IMG/VR virus record: IMGVR_UViG_3300043331_000267
Location: 1-55,177 of that record
Length of the DNA stretch: 55,177 nucleotides
Reading direction: 5' to 3' (one strand)
Source: a virus
Shown: positions 12,078 to 55,177 of the stretch, one piece after another
Layout: each line of letters begins with the position of its first letter
Numbering within the stretch: the first letter of the stretch is position 1
The notes under the pieces: generated by a model
The model's input: only the letters and a program-made list of their open reading frames with translations
Database searches by the model: none
What the model was told of the DNA's origin: nothing
Position numbers and translations under genes: made by a program

Positions 12078-12575
12078 CTAACCCAAATGGCATACGCGCC
12101 TCGCTTGATCGATCATCTCGGGGTCATTCGAAACCAGTTCCGCTTCCGCTTCTTCAACGGTCTTCGCTGTCGTCGCATGCACCGTGATCCATACGGTCTC
12201 CTCACGTGCATACAACACGCGCTTCGTCCCTGGTTTGGTCGTTAGAATGCAAGGCGCCTTGATGCGCTGGAAATCCTGGTCGGTCCACACATCGATTTCA
12301 CCAGTCAGGATGAACGCGAAGTGTTCCTTCAAATGAATCTTGCTCGTGAGCAAGCATCCTTTCTTGATCGTCACCTGCCGCGCATACAGGCCATCGGCGA
12401 AGCGATTGATGAGCGAGAAATCAGCCTGTGGAAGCTTCTTCAGCTGATCCTCGATCTGATACATCTGCCGCTGTGTAGGCAGGGTCTCACCCAGGCCCGA
12501 GATAACCGATGTGGCTTCCGGTCGGAACTCCGCTTGCAGCGGAAGGTTCTCGACGGTGAGCGAATACAACTGCAT
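12078..12575 (-). CDS. Cupin-like beta-barrel protein in the tail/ejection module
   Basis: 165 aa. GLYARQVTIKKGCLLTSKIHLKEHFAFILTGEIDVW...TKPGTKRVLYAREETVWITVH has a cupin-type strand pattern. Confidence 0.5.
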   Translation of the reverse strand: MQLYSLTVENLPLQAEFRPEATSVISGLGETLPTQRQMYQIEDQLKKLPQADFSLINRFADGLYARQVTIKKGCLLTSKIHLKEHFAFILTGEIDVWTDQDFQRIKAPCILTTKPGTKRVLYAREETVWITVHATTAKTVEEAEAELVSNDPEMIDQARRVCHLG

Positions 12576-12898
12576 CAGGCTGGCTCCACGATCATCCAGG
12601 CCACTTGTCTGGTGTCGGCTGCATTAGAACTTGTGATTACGAAACTCGTACCAGCCGTCCGCGCACTCACGGTCAATTCCCCGTGCGTACCGCTGGAGTT
12701 TTGGCCCGATAGAAAGATGCGGCTGTTCGCCTGCACTTTCGTGTTGCTCACCGTGACCGTGCCAGCGACGAGCGTTGCGACACCCATGTATCGATTCGCG
12801 CCGTCCTCGATCTTTAGGAACTCATGCACCAGATTGCGCAGATACCGCGTCCAGTCGCGAATATCGGTCGGTACGGCAACGAAGACGCGCAGACCCAC
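12575..12898 (-). CDS. Small beta-rich tail protein (107 aa)
   Basis: Coupled (1-nt overlaps) between the gp10-like and cupin-like genes. Function is unknown. Confidence 0.55.
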   Translation of the reverse strand: MGLRVFVAVPTDIRDWTRYLRNLVHEFLKIEDGANRYMGVATLVAGTVTVSNTKVQANSRIFLSGQNSSGTHGELTVSARTAGTSFVITSSNAADTRQVAWMIVEPA

Positions 12899-14309: not shown

Positions 14310-14723
14310 CTAACCCGTGTTCACGTTGAACGGCTCGTCATCGGCGGCCGAGCGCTGTAGGTCCATGTCCATGATCACTTCCTTCGCCGTCAGCTTGTCG
14401 ATGGTCTGCAATCCCATCATGGCCAACGCCACGGTCTCCGCCGGGACAGACGCGCCATAGGACGGCGCGATATGAATCGCGAGGTTATTGACGATACCTA
14501 GGATCGCGGCGTCGGGAACCGTGAGCACATCAGTCACCGTGCCGATCGGGATGTAACCGAGATTGCGACCCTCGCCCTCCCACAACGCCATCATCTGATT
14601 CATCCTGCGGATGCAGAAGTTTTGATCGGCCGCGCTTGGAGTCTCGTTCGCTCTGATGACGTTTATTGCCACGAGCGCGTCGGCAATGATCTGCGACGCG
14701 GCTTGGGAGGTGGGAGTCGCCAC
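14310..14723 (-). CDS. P22 gp4-like head-to-tail adaptor
   Basis: 137 aa. The pattern MNQMMALWEGEGRNLGYIP...NNLAIHIAPSYG parallels P22 gp4 (MMAEWYQDGKGIITGY...LACRIAPDY). Confidence 0.7.
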   Translation of the reverse strand: MATPTSQAASQIIADALVAINVIRANETPSAADQNFCIRRMNQMMALWEGEGRNLGYIPIGTVTDVLTVPDAAILGIVNNLAIHIAPSYGASVPAETVALAMMGLQTIDKLTAKEVIMDMDLQRSAADDEPFNVNTG

Positions 14724-14726
14724 GGA

Positions 14727-14984
14727 TTAAGCGCTCGCCAGAATCCCCAGCGATTCCAGCTTCGCGAGCAGATCGTTGAATTTCGATCGCAGCGAGTCGA
14801 GATCCGTCGTCAGTGCCGTGGTCGTAGATGTGGTCGTCGTGGTATTCGTCGCATCCGCGATCGTGGCCGGTTGTGTCGCTGGCGTAGTGCCGAAGAATCC
14901 AACCGTGCCACCAGACGTGTGCTTGATGACATCCGCATCGATATGCGAAGTCGCAACACCTAAAACTCGTTCACCTGCTGCCAT
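14727..14984 (-). CDS. Thr/Ser-tract mini-protein B (head decoration/fibre-like), paralogue of 16820..17056
   Basis: 85 aa ending GFFGTTPATQPATIADATNTTTTTSTTTALTTDLDSLRSKFNDLLAKLESLGILASA. Confidence 0.75.
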   Translation of the reverse strand: MAAGERVLGVATSHIDADVIKHTSGGTVGFFGTTPATQPATIADATNTTTTTSTTTALTTDLDSLRSKFNDLLAKLESLGILASA

Positions 14985-15576
14985 CGTCGTCGCTCCTATA
15001 GTTACCGCGCCATTCTTTCAGGCCGGTGTGAGTAATCGTGATATCTGGATAGGCCCATACTTGGCCGCCGAGCCGACGCCATTCACGGCAAAACCAAGCG
15101 TCCTCGCCAATCTTTCGCCCGTTCTCGTACGCTGTATCGAAACAACGCTCCATCTGCTCAATTACTCGACGACGGATGCGCATGACGCCAGTCCCCACGT
15201 AAGCGCACTCAAGCATTCCGTCTTGCTCAATACGCTTGCCATCGACACTCAGCAGGTTGACGTTCCATTCCAGCGGATCACAGCGCCGCGGACAGATGGC
15301 GCCAACCACATCAGCATCCAGGCACAGCATCCTGAGCAGGCCGCCGACATCCCATCCCATGTCATCGTCGATAAACATGAGGTCGGTGCAATCGGAGTCG
15401 AGAAACGCCTTAACTTGGGCATTTCTTGCCGCATCAACGAAATTGCTGAACGATAGCGCGTGCCACTGCACCTCAATGCCGGCGAGCGTCAATGCCTTCA
15501 CCGTGTCAATCATCGACTGCACGAACCGAACGCAGACCGAGCCGGTCAGCGAGGGTGTGCAAATCATCAACTTCAT
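14971..15576 (-). CDS. GT-A-type glycosyltransferase (201 aa)
   Basis: Track start is 15603. ATG 15576 gives an ATGA overlap with the upstream stop. DxD motif FIDDDM. Paralogous to the N-terminal half of 15573..16823. Confidence 0.7.
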   Translation of the reverse strand: MKLMICTPSLTGSVCVRFVQSMIDTVKALTLAGIEVQWHALSFSNFVDAARNAQVKAFLDSDCTDLMFIDDDMGWDVGGLLRMLCLDADVVGAICPRRCDPLEWNVNLLSVDGKRIEQDGMLECAYVGTGVMRIRRRVIEQMERCFDTAYENGRKIGEDAWFCREWRRLGGQVWAYPDITITHTGLKEWRGNYRSDDDGSR

Positions 15577-16823
15577 TGGATCAGCGCGAACGACTTCGAA
15601 CACTCGAAGATTTCGAAGCGTCGCCCGCTCTTGCTGCAGTAGTCCTCTACCGCGACACGAGAGGATCGTCGCGCGATGTCATCGACGATGATGGGAGCGC
15701 CCGCAATCTCATCACTCATTAGATCGAACAGGCCGCCACGCTTATCATCGCCTGATGGGCCATCACAGATTGCTAGCGCGTACTTATCCCGCGGAGGATT
15801 GTCATACCACGTCCATCGATCGGCCTGTACCAGCTGCCTTTGATGCACGTGAAGATTGTCGAGTCCATTCTCACGGGCCAGCCGTTCGATTCGGGCCGCC
15901 CATTCCGGGGACTGCTCAAGGCTATGCACGGGTTGATCAGTCGATGCCGCGAGCACGAGGCTGGACAGTCCGGAACCACAATCGAGAATTGGACCCTGTG
16001 CTTTACGAGCCAGCAGTGAACAGGTGAATAACCCCTCTGGCGACATCGCCCAGGTGTTACCCCAGACGTTGTAAAGCTCTAGATATGTCGCGGCGTCTGC
16101 GGTGCCAGCGCGAATCGCCTGTAGCCCTTCCGGGATCGCAACATCTTTGCGCCAAAAATGGCCCACACAGCCGGTCCACAATTTGTCTCCAATGTGGCCG
16201 AGCTGCATCAACGGATCGACATGAACCTTAAAACCAGCAGCACGCGCCTTTCGACAAAACTCGATGTCTCCGCCGCGCCGTGACATCCCATTCAATGTGC
16301 GTTCGAAGATGATTGGGATCATCTTGCGCCCATACCCATCTTCTTTACTGCGATGTTGCTGCACGGTCGGGTAAAGCGCCTCCAGTACACGACGCTTTAT
16401 CTTGAGAAATCCGGTTGGCACACCCTCAACCTCAACCAATCCATGTGCATCCGCCCAGCGCTCGCCTGGAAGTGGCTTAACCGGATAATCCTCATCATCG
16501 TTCTTCAGCGGATAGATGCCGGCGACGATGTCCGCATCGTGTTCGATGAGCTTTCTCAGTTCAGCATCGAGCCAGAAAACATCGGCATCCAAGAAAACCA
16601 ACTGTTCGCAGTCAGTCTCGAGGAAATCGCGAACGAGCCTATTTCTGGAGTCGTCTATGTGGCAATTGCCAGCAAATATTTCCAGATCAAGCCGATGTGG
16701 AATACGCTCTTGTGACGCGAACAGCGAATGAACGAACGGTGCCGACAATCCATTGTAAGCAGGCACCGCAATGAAAGTACCCGGTCCCGTCCGCTGGGAC
16801 CGGAAGTATTGAACGAAGCTCAC
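15573..16823 (-). CDS. Fusion protein: GT-A glycosyltransferase (N) plus class I SAM-dependent methyltransferase (C)
   Basis: 416 aa with a GTG start in a GTGA overlap. DxD motif FLDADV. The C-terminal half carries motif I ILDCGSGLSSLVLAA. Confidence 0.7.
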   Translation of the reverse strand: MSFVQYFRSQRTGPGTFIAVPAYNGLSAPFVHSLFASQERIPHRLDLEIFAGNCHIDDSRNRLVRDFLETDCEQLVFLDADVFWLDAELRKLIEHDADIVAGIYPLKNDDEDYPVKPLPGERWADAHGLVEVEGVPTGFLKIKRRVLEALYPTVQQHRSKEDGYGRKMIPIIFERTLNGMSRRGGDIEFCRKARAAGFKVHVDPLMQLGHIGDKLWTGCVGHFWRKDVAIPEGLQAIRAGTADAATYLELYNVWGNTWAMSPEGLFTCSLLARKAQGPILDCGSGLSSLVLAASTDQPVHSLEQSPEWAARIERLARENGLDNLHVHQRQLVQADRWTWYDNPPRDKYALAICDGPSGDDKRGGLFDLMSDEIAGAPIIVDDIARRSSRVAVEDYCSKSGRRFEIFECSKSFALIQ

Positions 16824-17056
16824 GCGCTAGCCAGCAGTCCGAGCGTTTCGAGCTTCGACAACAGATCGTTGAATTTGGACCGGAGCGAATCCAGATCCGT
16901 GGTCAATGCCGTTGTGGTCGACGTGGTGGTGGTCGTATTGGTTGCATCGGCAATGGTGGCCTGCTGAGCCGCCGGAGTGACACCGAAGAATCCAATCTTT
17001 GTGTCGGCAAACTGCACGCCATCCGCATGCCCGTCACCAACCTGTTGAGCTGCCAT
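16820..17056 (-). CDS. Thr/Ser-tract mini-protein A (head decoration/fibre-like)
   Basis: 78 aa. SD GAGGAG precedes ATG 17056. Ends GFFGVTPAAQQATIADATNTTTTTSTTTALTTDLDSLRSKFNDLLSKLETLGLLASA. Confidence 0.75.
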   Translation of the reverse strand: MAAQQVGDGHADGVQFADTKIGFFGVTPAAQQATIADATNTTTTTSTTTALTTDLDSLRSKFNDLLSKLETLGLLASA

Positions 17057-17069
17057 ATCGAGATCTCCT

Positions 17070-17099
17070 CAAAAGAAAAGCGCCGTGTCAGTCCGGCGC
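17070..17099 (-). terminator. Intrinsic terminator just after the coat gene
   Basis: On the minus strand: GCGCCG-8 nt loop-CGGCGC followed by TTTTCTTTTG, 13 nt after the coat stop. Confidence 0.7.
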
Positions 17100-17111: not shown

Positions 17112-18329
17112 TTATCCGTCTGCGTGAATGCGGGACGCCAACTGCGGATACTGCGCGACGTAGCCGAAGATGATGTCCAACCGGCACGGGAACTGATCGT
17201 TGTTGATGTCGTAAGCACGCACGATGCGCATGCTCACACCGTCATAGACCTCACGTGCCGCAAAGTCGACACCGGTCGGCATGATCAGATCCGCAGTCGC
17301 CACGGTGAACGCCGACTTGTGATACGTCAGAGATCCATTCAACCGCTCACCATTGCCCGCACCCACCTTGGTGATCGCGCCAGTATCGGTCGGCGAAGCA
17401 GACACGTTTTGAAGCGCGCCGCTCGTAACAATCGCAGGAGAGATGGCCAGTGTGGTTGCGTTCGCACCGCTGTTCGCAGTGATGACGAACTGCTGCGGTA
17501 CGCCCGTGTCCACCTTAGTTTCCGGATGCACGCGATTGCATCCTGCAATCGTGATGACATCACCGGCCAGGAAGGTTGTCGTGCCGGTGTTCACAGTCAG
17601 GCTCGCGCCGGTCTGGTTCGCGCCGTTGACGTTGTACAGCGTATCGCCCTTGACGGCCGTCCCGGTGACGTGATCGGTCACGTGGGTGCTCGACATGAAG
17701 TCGAAGCCCTGCGTACGTCCCATAACACCCTCGCGATACTGCTGCTCGATCTGAGTGGACTGATGGAACAGGCCCTTCAGTGCATCGACCAGCTTGACCT
17801 CGTGGGTGGTGGACAACAGAGCGCTGCGCTGACCATCGTCAGGCGCCAGATTGTCCTGCAGCTTCTGCCGGCCGAGACCGAACGACAGCAACGACACCGC
17901 CGTCGCATCCTGATCGACGAGGTTGTAGACCTGCTTCGTCAACCCAGTCAGACACGTTGCTTCCATATAGGAGGCAACCGTAGCCATCGCAGGTTCGATG
18001 ATGCGCTTGGAGAAGTCTTCCAGGTCGAGCGTCAGTTCTTTTGATGTGAAGTTCATGTCCACGCCGGCCTGATTCGTCACTTCCAGTGTGACGGACTGCT
18101 CCTGCGTGTCCTGCGCTGACATCGTACGACCGGTACGAATCACATACCGATTCGGCAGCCGGATGCGCAGAGAACTGCCGTTTCGTGAGCCCTCGCGAGC
18201 TCGAGCGCCGCCCTCCTTGAATGAATCGTCATACTGCTTGTCGACGCTACCGAGGAACGTTGCTTTCTGATGCAGAATCCGCAGCGCTTCGCGCAGGATC
18301 ACATCAGAGGTGAGAATGGTCTGAGTCAT
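17112..18329 (-). CDS. Major capsid protein, P22 coat (gp5) family
   Basis: 405 aa with SD AGGAG. The C-terminal end (FPCRLDIIFGYVAQYPQLASRI) parallels the P22 coat end (CRIALWYGVNATRPEAIGV). Follows the scaffold gene. Confidence 0.85.
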   Translation of the reverse strand: MTQTILTSDVILREALRILHQKATFLGSVDKQYDDSFKEGGARAREGSRNGSSLRIRLPNRYVIRTGRTMSAQDTQEQSVTLEVTNQAGVDMNFTSKELTLDLEDFSKRIIEPAMATVASYMEATCLTGLTKQVYNLVDQDATAVSLLSFGLGRQKLQDNLAPDDGQRSALLSTTHEVKLVDALKGLFHQSTQIEQQYREGVMGRTQGFDFMSSTHVTDHVTGTAVKGDTLYNVNGANQTGASLTVNTGTTTFLAGDVITIAGCNRVHPETKVDTGVPQQFVITANSGANATTLAISPAIVTSGALQNVSASPTDTGAITKVGAGNGERLNGSLTYHKSAFTVATADLIMPTGVDFAAREVYDGVSMRIVRAYDINNDQFPCRLDIIFGYVAQYPQLASRIHADG

Positions 18330-19348: not shown

Positions 19349-19816
19349 CTAAGCGCGCTTGATCTGCTTCCACTGGATCACATCGCCTGGAACCAGTTCG
19401 AAGGCGTCAACACCCAGTCCGCACGTGTGCACGTGCTTGCTCGCGATCTCCACGGCGCGTCGCGCATCGGCGCCCATGGCCAATGCCCCCAGTGCAACCT
19501 CGCGGCCCGATCCCCATGCGCCATAGGCGTCCTCACAGGGTTGAGGCTCGGGAACCTTCTCGTAGAACACGACGCCGGAACTGCTCGCAACCACTAGCCG
19601 CGTCCAATCGTCCGTTTTCTGGAATGCGGGGTACTTGTCCTTGTCGGCACCAGCAAGGTACCACTCAAGCAATGCGATCCCTTCACCGAGACCGCCGCAC
19701 CATGCGAACACCTTGTCGTCAACGCGACGGATCTTCGTGCATGTGACGGCAGTGTCGCCGCAGCAGGCCATCTTGTCGGCGGCAAGCGTGTGGCCGTCCC
19801 AGGCAATTATCGTCAT
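19349..19816 (-). CDS. HslV / proteasome-beta-like Ntn peptidase (candidate prohead protease)
   Basis: 155 aa. MTIIAWDG places Thr2 as the nucleophile. TKIRRV matches the HslV K33 motif (KKVRRL), and AWGSGREVALGA matches the GSG motif. Confidence 0.65.
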   Translation of the reverse strand: MTIIAWDGHTLAADKMACCGDTAVTCTKIRRVDDKVFAWCGGLGEGIALLEWYLAGADKDKYPAFQKTDDWTRLVVASSSGVVFYEKVPEPQPCEDAYGAWGSGREVALGALAMGADARRAVEIASKHVHTCGLGVDAFELVPGDVIQWKQIKRA

Positions 19817-20175
19817 GCTCGGCGCTTCTTCTCGCTTTCCAGCGCCTCGTTGAACGCCTCGCGCCGCAGTTCGTTGCGTTCCTTCGCCGTCACAGGCTCG
19901 GCACTCTCGACACCCATCTCCTGCAACTGAATCTCGACGTTGCGGCTATCGTTGTTCTTGCTCTCGTGCTGGCTGACTGAGGTGATAACGCCCATCGCGT
20001 GAACCATCACCTTGGCGCCCACCTTCGGCAGCTTGGACATGCCCAGTTTGTCGAGCGAGCCGCTGTCGAGCCTGAGCGTCAAACCGTAGGGGTATTCCGG
20101 TGAATCCGCAGCGACGGCCGTAGGCGCCATTTCCTTCTTCTGCGCCTTGGTCATCTTTAGATCCGCCATCTTCAT
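19813..20175 (-). CDS. Head-morphogenesis-module protein (120 aa), function unknown
   Basis: ATGA-coupled on both sides. Contains YPYGLTLRLDSGSLDKLG...VEIQLQEMGV and a Lys/Glu-rich C-terminal tail. Confidence 0.6.
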   Translation of the reverse strand: MKMADLKMTKAQKKEMAPTAVAADSPEYPYGLTLRLDSGSLDKLGMSKLPKVGAKVMVHAMGVITSVSQHESKNNDSRNVEIQLQEMGVESAEPVTAKERNELRREAFNEALESEKKRRA

Positions 20176-46602: not shown

Positions 46603-47285
46603 GCGGCATCTGTAGCGCACACCAACACCACGAGATCGGCTGTCGCCAATGCGAAGCTCTGCCATCGAAAGAGTTGGACGTGTTGATTAGGCGCGTGAAC
46701 GCTCTGATCCCGTCAAGTGTCACGCCGGCCACTCGCATCGAAATTCATCCGTGCGACTGGCTGATGCTGGTAGATGCCCTGCAGTCCACTCCCGAACCGC
46801 CGGCTGAGTGCGACGGCTGCGAGCAGTACGCAGTGATGCACGCTGAGATCGCACTGGCACTCGACATCCACGACGAGACGGACGCGCATGGCCTTCAGGA
46901 ACTCATCCTGAAGAAGCTGAGAGCCATGGCTGAGCCCACATGGCCGCATCCGTATGGCTATATCCGCAGTCTGATTTCGGAAGCCGTAGAGCGTGCCGAA
47001 ATCGACCTAATGGCCATAGGCCACGGCCCAGATGGACAGGATCGCACGGCCGCCATGAAGGATCTGGAGAACTGGAAGGCGAAGTTACAAGACGCATGGA
47101 TACATGGTGATCTGGAGGTCCGCAGAGCTACGCAACCGCCGGCACTTGACCTCCGTACGTTGCTGGATCTGGCGCTCGGCCACATCGACATGCCGGCGCT
47201 GAAAATCTCACACCCGAAGGACCACGCACGACTCGCGTCGTTCGTGCCGGGACTCGGCATAACGAAGTGCGAGGGCCAATCATGA
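46599..47285 (+). CDS. Hypothetical protein (228 aa)
   Basis: ATGA-coupled. N-terminal CxxH...CxxC. Confidence 0.6.
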   Translation: MSGICSAHQHHEIGCRQCEALPSKELDVLIRRVNALIPSSVTPATRIEIHPCDWLMLVDALQSTPEPPAECDGCEQYAVMHAEIALALDIHDETDAHGLQELILKKLRAMAEPTWPHPYGYIRSLISEAVERAEIDLMAIGHGPDGQDRTAAMKDLENWKAKLQDAWIHGDLEVRRATQPPALDLRTLLDLALGHIDMPALKISHPKDHARLASFVPGLGITKCEGQS

Positions 47286-47860
47286 ACGTCGAAGCCACAC
47301 GCGAAGACATTCTCACAAGGTCCGGCCAGTACTTCGACTTCCTTCATCCCGAGCGGTATCGCATCGAGATCACGGACATCGCTCACGCGCTCGCGAATAC
47401 GTGCCGCTTCGCCGGTCAATGCAGTCAGTTCTATTCGGTCGCGCAACACAGCGTGTACGTGAGCCGCATTGTCCCGCCAGAGGACGCGTTCGCCGGCCTA
47501 ATGCACGACTGCGCCGAGGCGTTCATCGGCGACGTGTCACGTCCACTCAAGCGCATGCTGGCCGACTATCGAGCGATCGAGAAGCGCATCGAAGCCGCAC
47601 TGTTTGCGGGTCTCGGATTACCGGCCAAGCTGCCGGACTCTGTGAAGCTCGCCGATCGACAGATGCTATTCAGTGAGCAGGCCAAGCTTCTGCCGCCGCA
47701 TGACGATGAGTGGGCCGTGCTCGAAGGCATCGGCCCGGCACCCGGAATCATCGTCACGCCGCTGTGGCCGGACGAAGCGTACGCGGCATTCATGGAGCGT
47801 TACTACGAGCTTCGACCGCCGTTCGCCGGACTCGCTCTGGGAGAGGAATCAGCTCCATGA
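47282..47860 (+). CDS. HD-domain phosphohydrolase (YfbR-like)
   Basis: 192 aa. Contains IAHALANTCRFAG...YSVAQHSV...LMHDCAEAFIGD. Confidence 0.7.
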   Translation: MNVEATREDILTRSGQYFDFLHPERYRIEITDIAHALANTCRFAGQCSQFYSVAQHSVYVSRIVPPEDAFAGLMHDCAEAFIGDVSRPLKRMLADYRAIEKRIEAALFAGLGLPAKLPDSVKLADRQMLFSEQAKLLPPHDDEWAVLEGIGPAPGIIVTPLWPDEAYAAFMERYYELRPPFAGLALGEESAP

Positions 47861-48593: not shown

Positions 48594-48767
48594 ATGATGG
48601 GCAACACCTGGGTCGTTGAACTGTGGGGATGCTGGGAGCCTGGCGAGAGTTATCGCTGGCGCGAGGAATATCGCGGCGAATCGCTGTGGCAGGCATTGCT
48701 CACGATGTGGCGCTTCCGCGGGTGGCCGTGTTCACGCATTTTTCACAGACCCGCGCAGCGTCGATGA
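48594..48767 (+). CDS. Trp-rich 57-aa protein (below the track cutoff)
   Basis: GGAG followed by ATG 48594. ATGA overlap with the methylase start. Confidence 0.4.
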   Translation: MMGNTWVVELWGCWEPGESYRWREEYRGESLWQALLTMWRFRGWPCSRIFHRPAQRR

Positions 48768-49615
48768 GAGTGTTGGATTTATTTAGTGGTATCGGAGGAT
48801 TCAGCCTTGGCCTCGAGCGAGCTGGAATGCAAACAATCGCTTTCTGCGAGCGTGATGAATACTGCCGAGCCGTCCTCCGAAAGCACTGGCCAGGCGTCCC
48901 CTGCTTCGACGACATTCACACCCTTGACGCAGACCGACTGGGTGGGCTTGGACGAATCGATCTCGTCTGCGGTGGCTTCCCCTGCCAACCCTTCTCTGTC
49001 GCCGGAAAGCAAAGAGCGCAGGAAGACGACCGCCACCTCTGGCCGGAAATGCGCCGTGTTATTGCACTCGCGCGACCCGCTTGGGTCGTTGGTGAAAACG
49101 TTGCTGGCCTCATCCCGCTGGCACTCGACGATGTGCTTGCTGACCTGGAAGCCGACGGCTACACCTCGCGGGCGCTTGTTATTCCGGCTTGTGCCGTCGA
49201 TGCGAAACACAGACGGGATCGAGTCTGGATCATTGCTCGCGACTCCGACATCAACCGCAAATCAGCTCGCGCCATCGATGGTGAAGAAGTGGCCCAGCTG
49301 CTCGGTACTACTGCCGACGCCTCGTCCTTGCAGTGGCGATCGATCCAGCGGGATGAATCGGACGGAGCTCTACCGCGCGATGGAGATGTTGCCCACGCCA
49401 ACGGCACGCGATTGGCGCTCAGGCAAGGCGAGCGAAGCGACGATGGAGCGCAACGCGCGACCGCTCTCGGAGCATGTCGGTGGGAGCCTGAACCCGCAGT
49501 GGGTCGAGTGGCTAATGGGGTTCCCCGTCGGGTGGACCGCCTTAGATGCCTCGGAAATGCCGTCGTCCCGCAGGTCGTCGAAGAAATCGGCCGAGCGATC
49601 ATGCTCAGCGTCTAG
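48764..49615 (+). CDS. DNA cytosine-5 methyltransferase (ORF intact, but the target-recognition region appears to be encoded in the +1 frame)
   Basis: Motif I DLFSGIGGF, IV GGFPCQPFS, VI ENV, VIII HRRDRVWI and X GNAVVPQV all lie in this frame. LPTPTARDW and NPQWVEWLMGFPVGWT lie in overlapping frame 48786..49619. Confidence 0.7.
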   Translation: MRVLDLFSGIGGFSLGLERAGMQTIAFCERDEYCRAVLRKHWPGVPCFDDIHTLDADRLGGLGRIDLVCGGFPCQPFSVAGKQRAQEDDRHLWPEMRRVIALARPAWVVGENVAGLIPLALDDVLADLEADGYTSRALVIPACAVDAKHRRDRVWIIARDSDINRKSARAIDGEEVAQLLGTTADASSLQWRSIQRDESDGALPRDGDVAHANGTRLALRQGERSDDGAQRATALGACRWEPEPAVGRVANGVPRRVDRLRCLGNAVVPQVVEEIGRAIMLSV

Positions 49616-52058: not shown

Positions 52059-52433
52059 ATGATCGCCACGTTCGAAGAACTTGCGAAGCTTGCCGGCACA
52101 AAGAAGCCGAAGGCTGTCGCTGCCTGGTGCGCCAGGAATCGCATTTTGACGTGGCGCGACACGAAGGGCCGGCCGTGCACGACGTTGACAGCCCTCGACC
52201 GGGCGTTGCATCGTGGTACGACCGATAACGAACCAAACTACGAGCCTCCGGAATGGCCTACCTCCCATCCTGCGGCCTCTCAATCCCAGGCGTCACCGAA
52301 AAAGACGGCCGGTATTACAAGGTCATCAAGAACAAGTGGCATCCGCTCTCCCGGATCGACGAAGGCGCCAATGCTCTCTACCGCGCTCTCTACGAGCTCG
52401 ACCCGCTCCGGCCCGGAACGATCGGGGAGCTGA
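52059..52433 (+). CDS. DUF4224-like excisionase-position protein (functional part probably the first ~65 aa)
   Basis: Contains FEELAKLAGTKKPKAVAAWCARNRILTWRDTKGRPCTTLTALDRAL. The frame stays open for 181 nt into the integrase gene. Confidence 0.5.
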   Translation: MIATFEELAKLAGTKKPKAVAAWCARNRILTWRDTKGRPCTTLTALDRALHRGTTDNEPNYEPPEWPTSHPAASQSQASPKKTAGITRSSRTSGIRSPGSTKAPMLSTALSTSSTRSGPERSGS

Positions 52434-53176
52434 TCAACGTGTATCGCGCAGTCGGGATGGACGAGCTGAAGCCGGCGACGCGGGATGATTACCTCAACAT
52501 CCTGAAGCGCCTGGACCATCACTTCGGCAAGATGCGGATTGGCACGCTGAAACCGAACCAGATCGCCCATTTCCTCGAGACCAGAAAGAAGCGCGGCAGG
52601 GGCGGCACGCGCGCGAACCGCGAAGTGGCCGTGCTGAGCGCCATTCACAATTTCGGCATGCGCCAGATGTACGTCGAGACCAATCCGTGCCGCGAAGTGT
52701 CTCGCAACACAGAGCGCCCGAAATCCAAGGTGGTGAAGGATGCCGAATTCTTAGAGGTGTTCGAGCGCTCTAATGAGGCGTTCCAGGACCTGATCGCCGC
52801 GGCCTACCTATCTGGCGTACGGCAGACCGATGTCATCGCCTGGAAGCGCTCCGAGCACCTGAAGCCGGAAGGCATCGTGTACGTCCAGAGCAAGACCAAG
52901 AAGCCGCACACGGTCTACTGGTCTGATGCCCTGCGCTTCTTCGTACGGCGCGCTATGGAGCGATTTCCAGGGACTGAGCTTGTGTTCACCAATACGGAAG
53001 GCGAGGCATGGACAACGTCTGCAATCGCTTCGCAATTGGCCAGGCTAGAATCTGGATGGTGCTTCAAGGATCTGCGCGCGAAAGCGCAGACCGATTCGCC
53101 ACACTCGGTTCTCGGGCACGGCGCAGCGCTGGAAGCGATGTATCGGAAGGAACTTCGGACGCGCCCAGTACGGTAG
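52253..53176 (+). CDS. int: Integrase (tyrosine recombinase 2) with arm-binding-type N-terminus
   Basis: 307 aa. GVTEKDGRYYKV, R in LSGVRQTD, KDLRAK (Lys where its paralogue has His), LGHGA, EAMYRK. attP lies 67 nt downstream. Confidence 0.8.
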   Translation: MAYLPSCGLSIPGVTEKDGRYYKVIKNKWHPLSRIDEGANALYRALYELDPLRPGTIGELINVYRAVGMDELKPATRDDYLNILKRLDHHFGKMRIGTLKPNQIAHFLETRKKRGRGGTRANREVAVLSAIHNFGMRQMYVETNPCREVSRNTERPKSKVVKDAEFLEVFERSNEAFQDLIAAAYLSGVRQTDVIAWKRSEHLKPEGIVYVQSKTKKPHTVYWSDALRFFVRRAMERFPGTELVFTNTEGEAWTTSAIASQLARLESGWCFKDLRAKAQTDSPHSVLGHGAALEAMYRKELRTRPVR

Positions 53177-55080: not shown

Positions 55081-55177
55081 GATCATGGCTTACGGTTTCG
55101 CTCCATGATCTCGTGCCATTGCACGATGCGCGCCGGCAAATCGTTTCGCAGGTCGTGCAGCGATTTCCGCAGCTGGC
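55081..55177. repeat. Second copy of the 97-bp closure overlap
   Basis: Identical to 1-97. Confidence 0.95.

Follow-up and report, generated by a model that had tools for sequence, protein, structure and literature searches.

What does a phage do with two glycosyltransferase genes and a methyltransferase domain in the middle of its capsid genes? The question is raised by the uncultured virus record IMGVR_UViG_3300043331_000267 (positions 1 to 55,177; "the window" hereafter means this whole stretch of 55,177 nucleotides), in which four minus-strand genes between positions 14727 and 17056 lie within a P22-like head module. Two of them encode threonine-rich mini-proteins of 78 and 85 amino acids (aa), and these two genes bracket those of a 416-aa and a 201-aa enzyme. 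Our reading, to which we give a probability of roughly 0.55, is that the mini-proteins are small fibre proteins of the capsid surface and that the adjacent enzymes put O-linked, methyl-capped glycans on their threonine (Thr) tract.

Gene organization of the cassette

The cassette and its borders consist of the following elements (GT, glycosyltransferase; SAM, S-adenosylmethionine; AF2, AlphaFold2).

17112..18329, minus strand: P22-type major coat protein gene, 405 aa (PF11651, E 5.9e-28; phrog_283 'major head protein', E 2e-67)
17070..17099, minus strand: terminator-like hairpin GCGCCG-loop-CGGCGC, then TTTTCTTTTG, between the coat stop codon and the first mini-protein gene
16820..17056, minus strand: mini-protein 1, 78 aa, proposed capsid fibre or decoration subunit and glycan acceptor
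16910..16939, minus strand: codons for NTTTTTSTTT, residues 40-49 of mini-protein 1, proposed O-glycosylation tract
15573..16823, minus strand: predicted 416-aa bifunctional enzyme, GT-A plus class I SAM O-methyltransferase-like (AF2, Foldseek, PDB profiles, invariant residues)
16581..16589, minus strand: DxD motif D79-A-D81 within FLDADV of the 416-aa GT-A domain, invariant in 39 homologues
15960..15989, minus strand: SAM-binding motif I ILDCGSGLSS, residues 279-288 of the 416-aa protein, G283 and G285 invariant
14971..15576, minus strand: 201-aa putative stand-alone GT-A paralogue (FIDDDM, GEDAWFC, His183)
15361..15369, minus strand: DDD (DxD) motif of the 201-aa glycosyltransferase
14727..14984, minus strand: mini-protein 2, 85 aa; N-terminus unlike that of mini-protein 1; GFFG motif, Thr tract and helix alike
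14817..14846, minus strand: codons for NTTTTTSTTT, residues 47-56 of mini-protein 2
14310..14723, minus strand: gp4-like head-tail adaptor gene, downstream boundary of the cassette (phrog_637, E 8e-12; weak PF11650 match)

The four open reading frames (ORFs) are found at the positions and on the strand given to them in a first-pass annotation of the window, and the junctions described there, a GTGA overlap before and an ATGA overlap after the 416-aa gene, are present as well, joined by a 14-nt overlap between the 201-aa and the second mini-protein gene. An alternative GTG start of the 201-aa gene lies at 15603. The coat gene is the upstream neighbour that places the cassette within the head module, and the terminator said to follow it is a terminator-like stem-loop at 17099-17080 with six G-C pairs and a TTTTCTTTT T-run, which precedes the first mini-protein gene; the GAGGAG ribosome-binding site of that gene comes after the hairpin. 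In total, terminator-like sites in the region do not exceed shuffle expectation, and the hairpin at 17099-17080 fits by its position. The cassette is flanked by the P22 coat (PF11651, E 6e-28), scaffold, gp4-like and gp10-like head-completion genes, and the P22-like head module is present in order, with a portal (PF16510, E 1e-166), the same coat match, phrog_8865, phrog_637 and phrog_578. The coat protein ends in ...QLASRIHADG and carries no Ser/Thr-rich extension. Among the real genes of the window, runs of at least six Ser/Thr occur in the two mini-proteins only. None of the four cassette proteins has a transmembrane-like segment (maximum Kyte-Doolittle hydropathy, KD(19), at most 1.58).

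Linkage of mini-protein and enzyme across relatives

Loci were collected with a profile of the 416-aa glycosyltransferase-methyltransferase fusion (GT-MT), and those with at least 350 nt of upstream sequence were counted (n=82; surveyed loci are cited by L numbers). In 79 of these 82 (96%) an ORF of the mini-protein family lies directly upstream on the same strand and ends at the GT-MT start, and the linked relatives reach down to 33-40% identity. Two exceptions, L044 and L047, belong to the same phage and have a related-looking protein with a Thr-rich stretch and a helix instead; L087 is the sole real exception. Linkage also holds in the reverse direction: all four independently chosen mini-protein genes (L163, L164, L165 and L170, picked by exact-protein look-ups) are followed by GT-MT in a P22-like head module. 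The recurrent order, portal - scaffold - coat - mini - GT·MT - (0-2 extra GT) - (second mini) - gp4 - gp10, is found in the uncultured GenBank podovirus MW202691 too. A survey for joint occurrence of the Thr-tract protein and the GT genes, as proposed in the first-pass annotation, thus gives near-obligate co-occurrence in P22-like head modules. The duplication of the mini-protein, described there for the window, is not a core feature: most relatives have one mini-protein and the GT-MT fusion only. The cassette type is present in hundreds of uncultured phages; a search for the cassette at the DNA level in phages gave no match.

The number of enzymes goes with the type of tract. The Ser-containing tract (T[NK]TTT[TG]TSTTTALT) is always accompanied by additional stand-alone GTs, one or two per cassette (L163:5250-8296, L170:4253-6953, L021, L029 and L061), and cassettes with the TTTTTATTT tract have the GT-MT fusion alone. 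Near single-domain GT homologues in bacterial genomes, neither a Thr/Ser-tract partner nor a P22-type coat was found; because these single-domain GTs lack a Thr-tract partner, the coupling of GT and mini-protein appears to be specific to the fusion clade.

Inserted genes are seen beside the coat gene at two loci. In MW202691 (L001:5146-5727) an annotated endonuclease gene is inserted between coat and mini-protein, and L171:2055-2678, with weak HNH_3 and faint NUMOD3 matches, is a homing-endonuclease-type gene inserted next to the coat.

The enzymes

The 416-aa protein is confidently predicted to be a GT-A glycosyltransferase fused to a COMT-like SAM O-methyltransferase. Its AF2 model on 39 homologues (predicted local distance difference test, pLDDT, 93.3; predicted template modelling score, pTM, 0.84) comprises two domains joined by a helical linker, GT-A at about residues 1-225 and class I SAM O-methyltransferase-like at about residues 255-416. 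For the N-terminal domain, Foldseek finds GT-A proteins from uncultured phages (E 1e-17 to 1e-12), the glycosyltransferase Q855A2 of mycobacteriophage Che8 (E 3.8e-9), a PBCV-1 protein, an SFV1 GT and human collagen hydroxylysine galactosyltransferase (COLGALT1), a protein O-glycosyltransferase; a sequence profile finds the STIV A197 GT in the PDB (E 1.5e-4). The C-terminal domain matches COMT and cation-dependent O-methyltransferases (COMT, 7cvu, 5x7f) as well as the mycobacterial MeT1 entry 6g80, which we take to be a sugar O-methyltransferase, at E ~1e-6, and by PDB profile the methyltransferase-like protein 3cvo (E 2e-5). Its fold neighbours include small-molecule, RNA and protein methyltransferases. 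A GT-A plus a Rossmann methyltransferase had been expected from the first inspection of the sequence, and the AF2 model (pLDDT 93) together with the Foldseek and PDB-profile matches agrees with that expectation. The target of methylation would be a sugar hydroxyl, because the methyltransferase is fused to a GT and because A064R of PBCV-1 (see below) offers a precedent.

Across the 39 homologues D79-x-D81, His210, G283-x-G285 and D354-G355 are invariant, and the acidic position that follows strand 2, E303, shows conservation of at least 90%. The fusion is not rare: when its family is clustered at 50% identity, 1,227 representatives reach E <=1e-30, and nearly all of the best 150 among these 1,227 are full length (~420 aa).

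As previously suggested, the 201-aa protein is a paralogue of the 416-aa GT domain (BLASTP against the N-terminal half, 30% identity, E 1e-21). It matches phrog_1574 (E 3e-23), the family common to the 416-aa GT domain, and the NCBIfam HpsN glycosyltransferase (E 4.9e-5). In its homologue set D70, D72, D159 and H183 are invariant, and DDD, GED and the C-terminal His are kept. Since a direct PDB profile search with the 201-aa GT set gave GlfT2 at E 0.69 only, the assignment as a GT rests on paralogy, motifs and NCBIfam. Both DxD motifs named in the first-pass annotation (D79-x-D81 and D70-D-D72) and SAM motif I (G283-x-G285) are thus present, and invariant across homologues.

Genomes of Variovorax, Caballeronia, Paraburkholderia, Neisseria and Snodgrassella often contain single-domain homologues of the GT, with 25-33% identity (L091-L161; examples are L110 in Variovorax paradoxus, L132 in Neisseria mucosa, L140 in Snodgrassella alvi and L098 in Caballeronia). 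Such single-domain relatives occur in large cultured phages too.

The mini-proteins and their threonine tract

The two mini-proteins have in common a C-terminal block of 58 codons with 76.4% nucleotide identity, in which 22 codons are identical, 29 differ synonymously and 7 non-synonymously. By the Nei-Gojobori method (NG86) dN is 0.08 and dS 1.43 (dN/dS ~0.06). Because the differences are mostly synonymous at such values, the duplication is old and strong purifying selection acts on the protein sequence of both copies, which agrees with the earlier view that both are kept by selection and are not a recent duplication.

A profile search yields 2,163 relatives, all metagenomic and none with a functional name, and PHROG and Pfam scans of diverse mini-proteins gave no informative family. 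Members have three parts: the N-terminal module reads DG..G.S.T.KIGFYG.TP..Q, the middle is rich in Thr, and the C-terminal part is an amphipathic helix that ends in LGLI/LGLLA; mini-protein 1 carries the canonical N-terminal module DG...KIGFFGxTPxxQ. Between subfamilies the middle differs in sequence and length and keeps its Thr-richness (variants are NTTTTTSTTTAL, TTTTTATTTAL, VTATITTT and TTVDTTAITTVD repeats). When 81 members are aligned, the best-conserved segment is the tract, with a mean top-residue fraction of 0.86 versus 0.52 for the N-terminus and 0.59 for the helix. The picture of a loose mucin-like linker therefore has to be corrected: the tract is the most conserved segment, and a structural role has room. 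Genomes with two paralogues (the window, L025, L027, L164 and L165) have the same tract within a genome and different tracts between genomes; given the dS of 1.43, the identical tracts in the window do not stem from recent gene conversion. An AF2 model of the mini-protein monomer (pLDDT 76) predicts a helix at residues 49-72 only and a tract without regular structure.

The arrangement of duplicated mini-genes varies. At L164:5001-5456, L165:2348-2835, L025 and L027 a second paralogue with a shorter or different N-terminus directly follows the first, and the bracketing of the enzymes by two mini-genes in the window differs from this tandem placement. At L076:4715-5977 three tandem, divergent paralogues of 135-160 aa (GFYGETGVNQGT..., with a 'VFGFASSTVA' insert) lie upstream of GT-MT, a local expansion of the candidate acceptor gene.

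Probable association with the capsid

In the relatives the mini-gene slot is fixed between the coat and gp4/gp10 genes. The best PDB match of the mini-protein profile is 'B2 Dec gp45' (9d82_J, E 0.011), in an alignment that spans a stretch rich in Thr as well as the C-terminal helix ...DLNALITKLKAAGIMA. Gp45, 99 aa long, is a homotrimeric decoration protein of the Shigella N4-like phage B2; it was modelled on the T=9 capsid and was detected by mass spectrometry (PMC11654681). Its C-terminal module is common to many 'head fiber' proteins, phi29 gp8.5 included, which explains the weak match of the mini-protein to phrog_4366 'head fiber protein' (E 0.0076).

Further relatives carry the same parts in larger frames. 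At L092:4056-5852 and L099:3812-5212 the post-coat gene encodes a protein of 463-567 aa with the mini-protein N-terminal module; in place of the tract it has four tandem beta-rich repeats of ~90 aa (conserved N-x-T-A-A-x-[IV]-T-P-T), and a single-domain GT gene follows. The L099 protein keeps the C-terminal helix as well. Neither Pfam nor the PDB gave a match to the repeats of these two proteins. In L045, L064 and L093 the mini-protein module is fused to the C-terminus of larger proteins; the idea that the N-terminal domain of L064 is a DUF2190 cement protein was dropped, as it has no Pfam or PHROG match. An anchor, a displayed middle and an oligomerising helix make up the layout expected of a capsid display protein, and with the slot, the gp45 likeness and these relatives in agreement, the mini-proteins would be located in the virion. 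The first-pass description as head-associated, fibre-like proteins with a C-terminal helix has support from the weak but convergent link to gp45, whose decoration of the capsid is proven by structure.

Proposed function and alternatives

We propose the following scenario. The variable N-terminal module of the mini-protein would contact the capsid, the Thr tract would be extended and exposed, and the C-terminal amphipathic helix, related to the trimeric 'head fiber'/decoration module, would trimerise. The GT-A domain of the 416-aa protein would act in the cytoplasm, where it would O-glycosylate Thr/Ser residues of the tract with the help of a host nucleotide-sugar and a DxD-bound metal; the 201-aa paralogue would add a second sugar or serve a second position, and the fused COMT-like SAM domain would cap the sugar by O-methylation. 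The cassette would be expressed after the coat gene, behind a leaky terminator-like hairpin and by translational coupling. Since its genes follow the coat and are translationally coupled, acceptor and enzymes would be made together late in infection. From all this we infer the identity of the acceptor, the O-linkage, the methylated sugar and trimerisation, with surface shielding or adhesion as the biological role.

Several observations weigh against this scenario. By Pfam's curated thresholds the 416-aa protein falls short both of GT2 PF00535 (E 0.039; 14.3 bits against a cut-off of 23.3) and of Methyltransf_31 (E 0.007), and the 201-aa protein has no PF00535 match; with PF00535 found at E<0.01 in 4 of 39 homologues only, the cassette GTs are a divergent clade outside this family by the curated test. 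The GT-A superfamily also glycosylates DNA, lipids and polysaccharides, and because its substrates are so diverse the fold alone leaves the substrate undefined. For the mini-protein, AF2 reaches moderate confidence only, and the near-invariance of the tract is unusual for a mucin-like acceptor and could be structural. The HHalign comparison of the mini-family with gp45 (66.8% probability, E 5.3e-5) covers 26 C-terminal columns only, and the head fiber family PF11133, with which gp45 is annotated, is not matched by the mini-family (1 of 81 mini-proteins, E 0.053), so that the likeness is probably that of a shared module, not of family membership. The association between tract type and GT number, which may reflect co-evolution of tract and glycan, is confounded by phylogeny. 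Finally, a tblastn search for mini-proteins in 50,697 phage records, in which the low-complexity filter masks the tract, found two uncultured Manatee Spring genomes only and no cultured phage.

Could the mini-proteins instead be unglycosylated head-fibre or decoration proteins with a structural tract (e.g. for beta-strand packing in a trimer), while GT-MT and GT act on the coat, another virion protein or a polysaccharide or lipopolysaccharide (LPS) of the host envelope? A tract that is the most conserved segment and identical between paralogues is what a packing or assembly interface would give, and the C-terminal module resembles that of unglycosylated head-fibre proteins. P22-like phages are, moreover, known for O-antigen-modifying GTs, and single-domain relatives of the cassette GTs live in bacteria and large phages without a Thr-tract partner. 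We nevertheless consider this explanation unlikely. A 96% adjacent, same-strand, coupled pairing down to 33-40% identity is hard to explain if enzyme and mini-protein have nothing to do with each other; the coat lacks a Ser/Thr-rich extension and Ser/Thr runs are absent from all other genes of the window; no regular structure is predicted for the tract, and between subfamilies its sequence varies freely yet stays Thr-rich. An action on the O-antigen fits no better, as the enzymes have no transmembrane segments and the cassette neither contains a GtrA/GtrB-type gene nor lies beside the integrase. The arrangement of gtr-type O-antigen conversion, a membrane GT and a flippase next to int/att, is not the one found here.

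A small glycoprotein or glycopeptide that acts outside the virion, be it an assembly chaperone or scaffold-like factor, a carrier or primer for a glycan, or a released glycopeptide, is in our judgement improbable. The presence of the mini-proteins in the virion is, it is true, deduced from synteny and a weak 26-residue likeness only, and a size of ~80 aa next to tailoring enzymes recalls peptide-modification clusters. Yet the slot between coat and head-completion genes is fixed in all relatives, some of which bear the same termini around large displayed repeats or have the module fused to larger proteins, and the cassette shows no leader/core architecture, Cys pairs, protease, transporter gene or signal peptide. 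Glycosylation of phage DNA, with the GT-A enzymes acting on hypermodified cytosine together with the distant C5-cytosine methylase (48623-49615; PF00145, E 1e-41), is more improbable by far. Phage GT-A enzymes that glycosylate 5-hydroxymethylcytosine are documented; documented hypermodification pathways, however, cluster with 5mYOX/TET or ThyS genes. No 5mYOX/TET-type oxygenase is found among the ORFs scanned at 42-52 kb, and no cluster of a GT beside C5-methyltransferase and 5mYOX/TET, or ThyS, is present. The GT cassette lies 32 kb from the methylase, in the head module and coupled to Thr-tract genes, a linkage with the mini-protein that holds across relatives.

Comparison with known systems

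In the mycobacteriophages Che8, Corndog and Myrna, phage-encoded GTs are thought to glycosylate virion surface proteins in the cytoplasm (PMC12363180, PMC12619734). The statement of the first-pass annotation that mycobacteriophage GTs are encoded beside the capsid genes was not confirmed in secondary sources, which name Che8 gp110 and Corndog gp38. The GT-A domain of the 416-aa protein is structurally similar to Che8 Q855A2 (Foldseek, see above), a likeness between the two systems. Che8 gene 110 lies far from the Che8 capsid gene. Mycobacteriophage glycans sit on C-terminal extensions of capsid and tail-tube subunits, whereas the window has a coat without extension and a separate candidate acceptor of ~80 aa. 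Unlike the mycobacteriophages, it also has one GT fused to a methyltransferase and the genes inside the head module, and its lineage is that of a P22-like podovirus type from environmental metagenomes and not that of an actinobacteriophage.

An enzymatic parallel comes from A064R of the chlorovirus PBCV-1, which comprises a GT, a second GT and a 2-O-methyltransferase acting on the glycan of the capsid protein Vp54, with biochemical verification (PMC7019647). Here too viral GT-A domains are joined with a SAM methyltransferase, and A064R caps a capsid-protein glycan with a methylated sugar. Its substrates, though, are N-linked glycans of an atypical kind on the major capsid protein, the virus is a giant one of eukaryotes, and all three domains are in one chain; the window, in contrast, has a GT-MT fusion plus a separate GT and a predicted O-linkage to the Thr tract of an accessory protein, and no close sequence relationship to A064R was shown. 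In serine-rich-repeat adhesins and flagellins, soluble cytoplasmic GTs modify Ser/Thr-rich surface proteins before assembly or export, and sequential GTs extend the glycan. The proposed action of soluble GTs on a Ser/Thr-rich segment of a surface-destined protein is alike. The acceptors of these bacterial systems are long variable repeats, however, while the tract in the window is short (~10-15 residues) and nearly invariant and its enzymes belong to the uncharacterised phage GT-A clade phrog_1574.

B2 gp45 is small like the mini-proteins (99 aa vs 78-85 aa), with a Thr-rich stretch and then a C-terminal helix ending in ...N.L..KL...G(I/L)(M/L)A, and as a homotrimeric capsid decoration it has the role that we propose for them. 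The two are unrelated in their N-terminal parts, though, and the B2 gene follows the lysis genes, has no adjacent GT, and no glycosylation is reported for its product (PMC11654681). An Acinetobacter 'RNA and sugars' paper concerns lipooligosaccharide in a cystovirus envelope and has no bearing on this system.

That viruses encode glycosylation of their own virion proteins is already known; what is new is the proposed mini-protein acceptor with its near-invariant tract, the fusion of GT and MT, and the lineage. Searches of the literature turned up no such system, either for P22-like phages or for any others that infect Gram-negative hosts, in agreement with the first-pass annotation, which knew of none for P22-like phages. 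The host label 'Gram-negative' derives from metagenome-assembled genome bins of related contigs only, which point to Gammaproteobacteria and Alphaproteobacteria, besides other diderm lineages, as possible hosts. Phage-encoded virion glycosylation has so far been demonstrated in a few mycobacteriophages only; there it alters antibody recognition, which is relevant to phage therapy. If our reading is true, glycosylated capsids are common among phages from the environment that infect Gram-negative-type hosts, and their making follows a different design with a small dedicated acceptor fibre and a fused GT-methyltransferase, and comes as a compact, portable four-gene module of ~2.3 kb for placing defined glycans on phage capsids. 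A wider generalization is offered tentatively, at somewhat less than even odds. P22-like phages of diderm bacteria may widely carry a dedicated capsid glycoprotein system (>1,000 metagenomic protein clusters), in which a trimeric head-fibre of ~80 aa has its near-invariant tract stoichiometrically O-glycosylated and methyl-capped by the cognate GT-MT, with tract and GT repertoire co-evolving as a 'glyco-code' and not as a mucin-like coat. Such a system would be the first tailed-phage virion glycosylation outside the actinobacteriophages and the first with a separate acceptor.

Other features of the genome

Because its first 97 bases (1-97) recur exactly at 55081-55177, the window is a complete phage genome, assembled as a circle or else terminally redundant, with a unit of 55,080 bp. 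It encodes a P22-type terminase, portal, scaffold and coat, a beta-helix tailspike, a helicase, a primase, ERF/YqaJ recombination genes and the C5 DNA methylase; at 52253-53176, a long way from the cassette, lies a weak integrase-like gene. The methylase gene (48623-49615, plus strand) lies in the early region, and a YfbR-like 5'-deoxynucleotidase (47267-47860, E 1.5e-5) is located just upstream.

Within the head module a 155-aa ORF (19349-19816, minus strand) between the portal-proximal genes and the scaffold starts with MTIIAWDG, i.e. with Thr after the initiator Met, and has a weak NCBIfam match to the archaeal proteasome beta subunit (E 0.027) and no Pfam match. It may encode an Ntn-hydrolase or HslV-like protease, which would be unusual for a head module of P22-like type, as P22 itself is not known to have a prohead protease. 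Directly after the portal, a 120-aa ORF (19813-20175, minus strand) has a match to PF21628 at E 4e-14 ('Gp10-like, major coat protein-like'). A stand-alone 107-aa K1 capsule-lyase C-terminal domain (12575-12898, minus strand; PF24146, E 2e-29) has the gp10-like gene on one side and, on the other, a tail-fibre-like gene of 165 aa (phrog_12032). Elsewhere this domain forms the C-terminal end of much longer tail proteins, and the matching PHROG profiles are covered at 392-470, 471-544 and 563-649.

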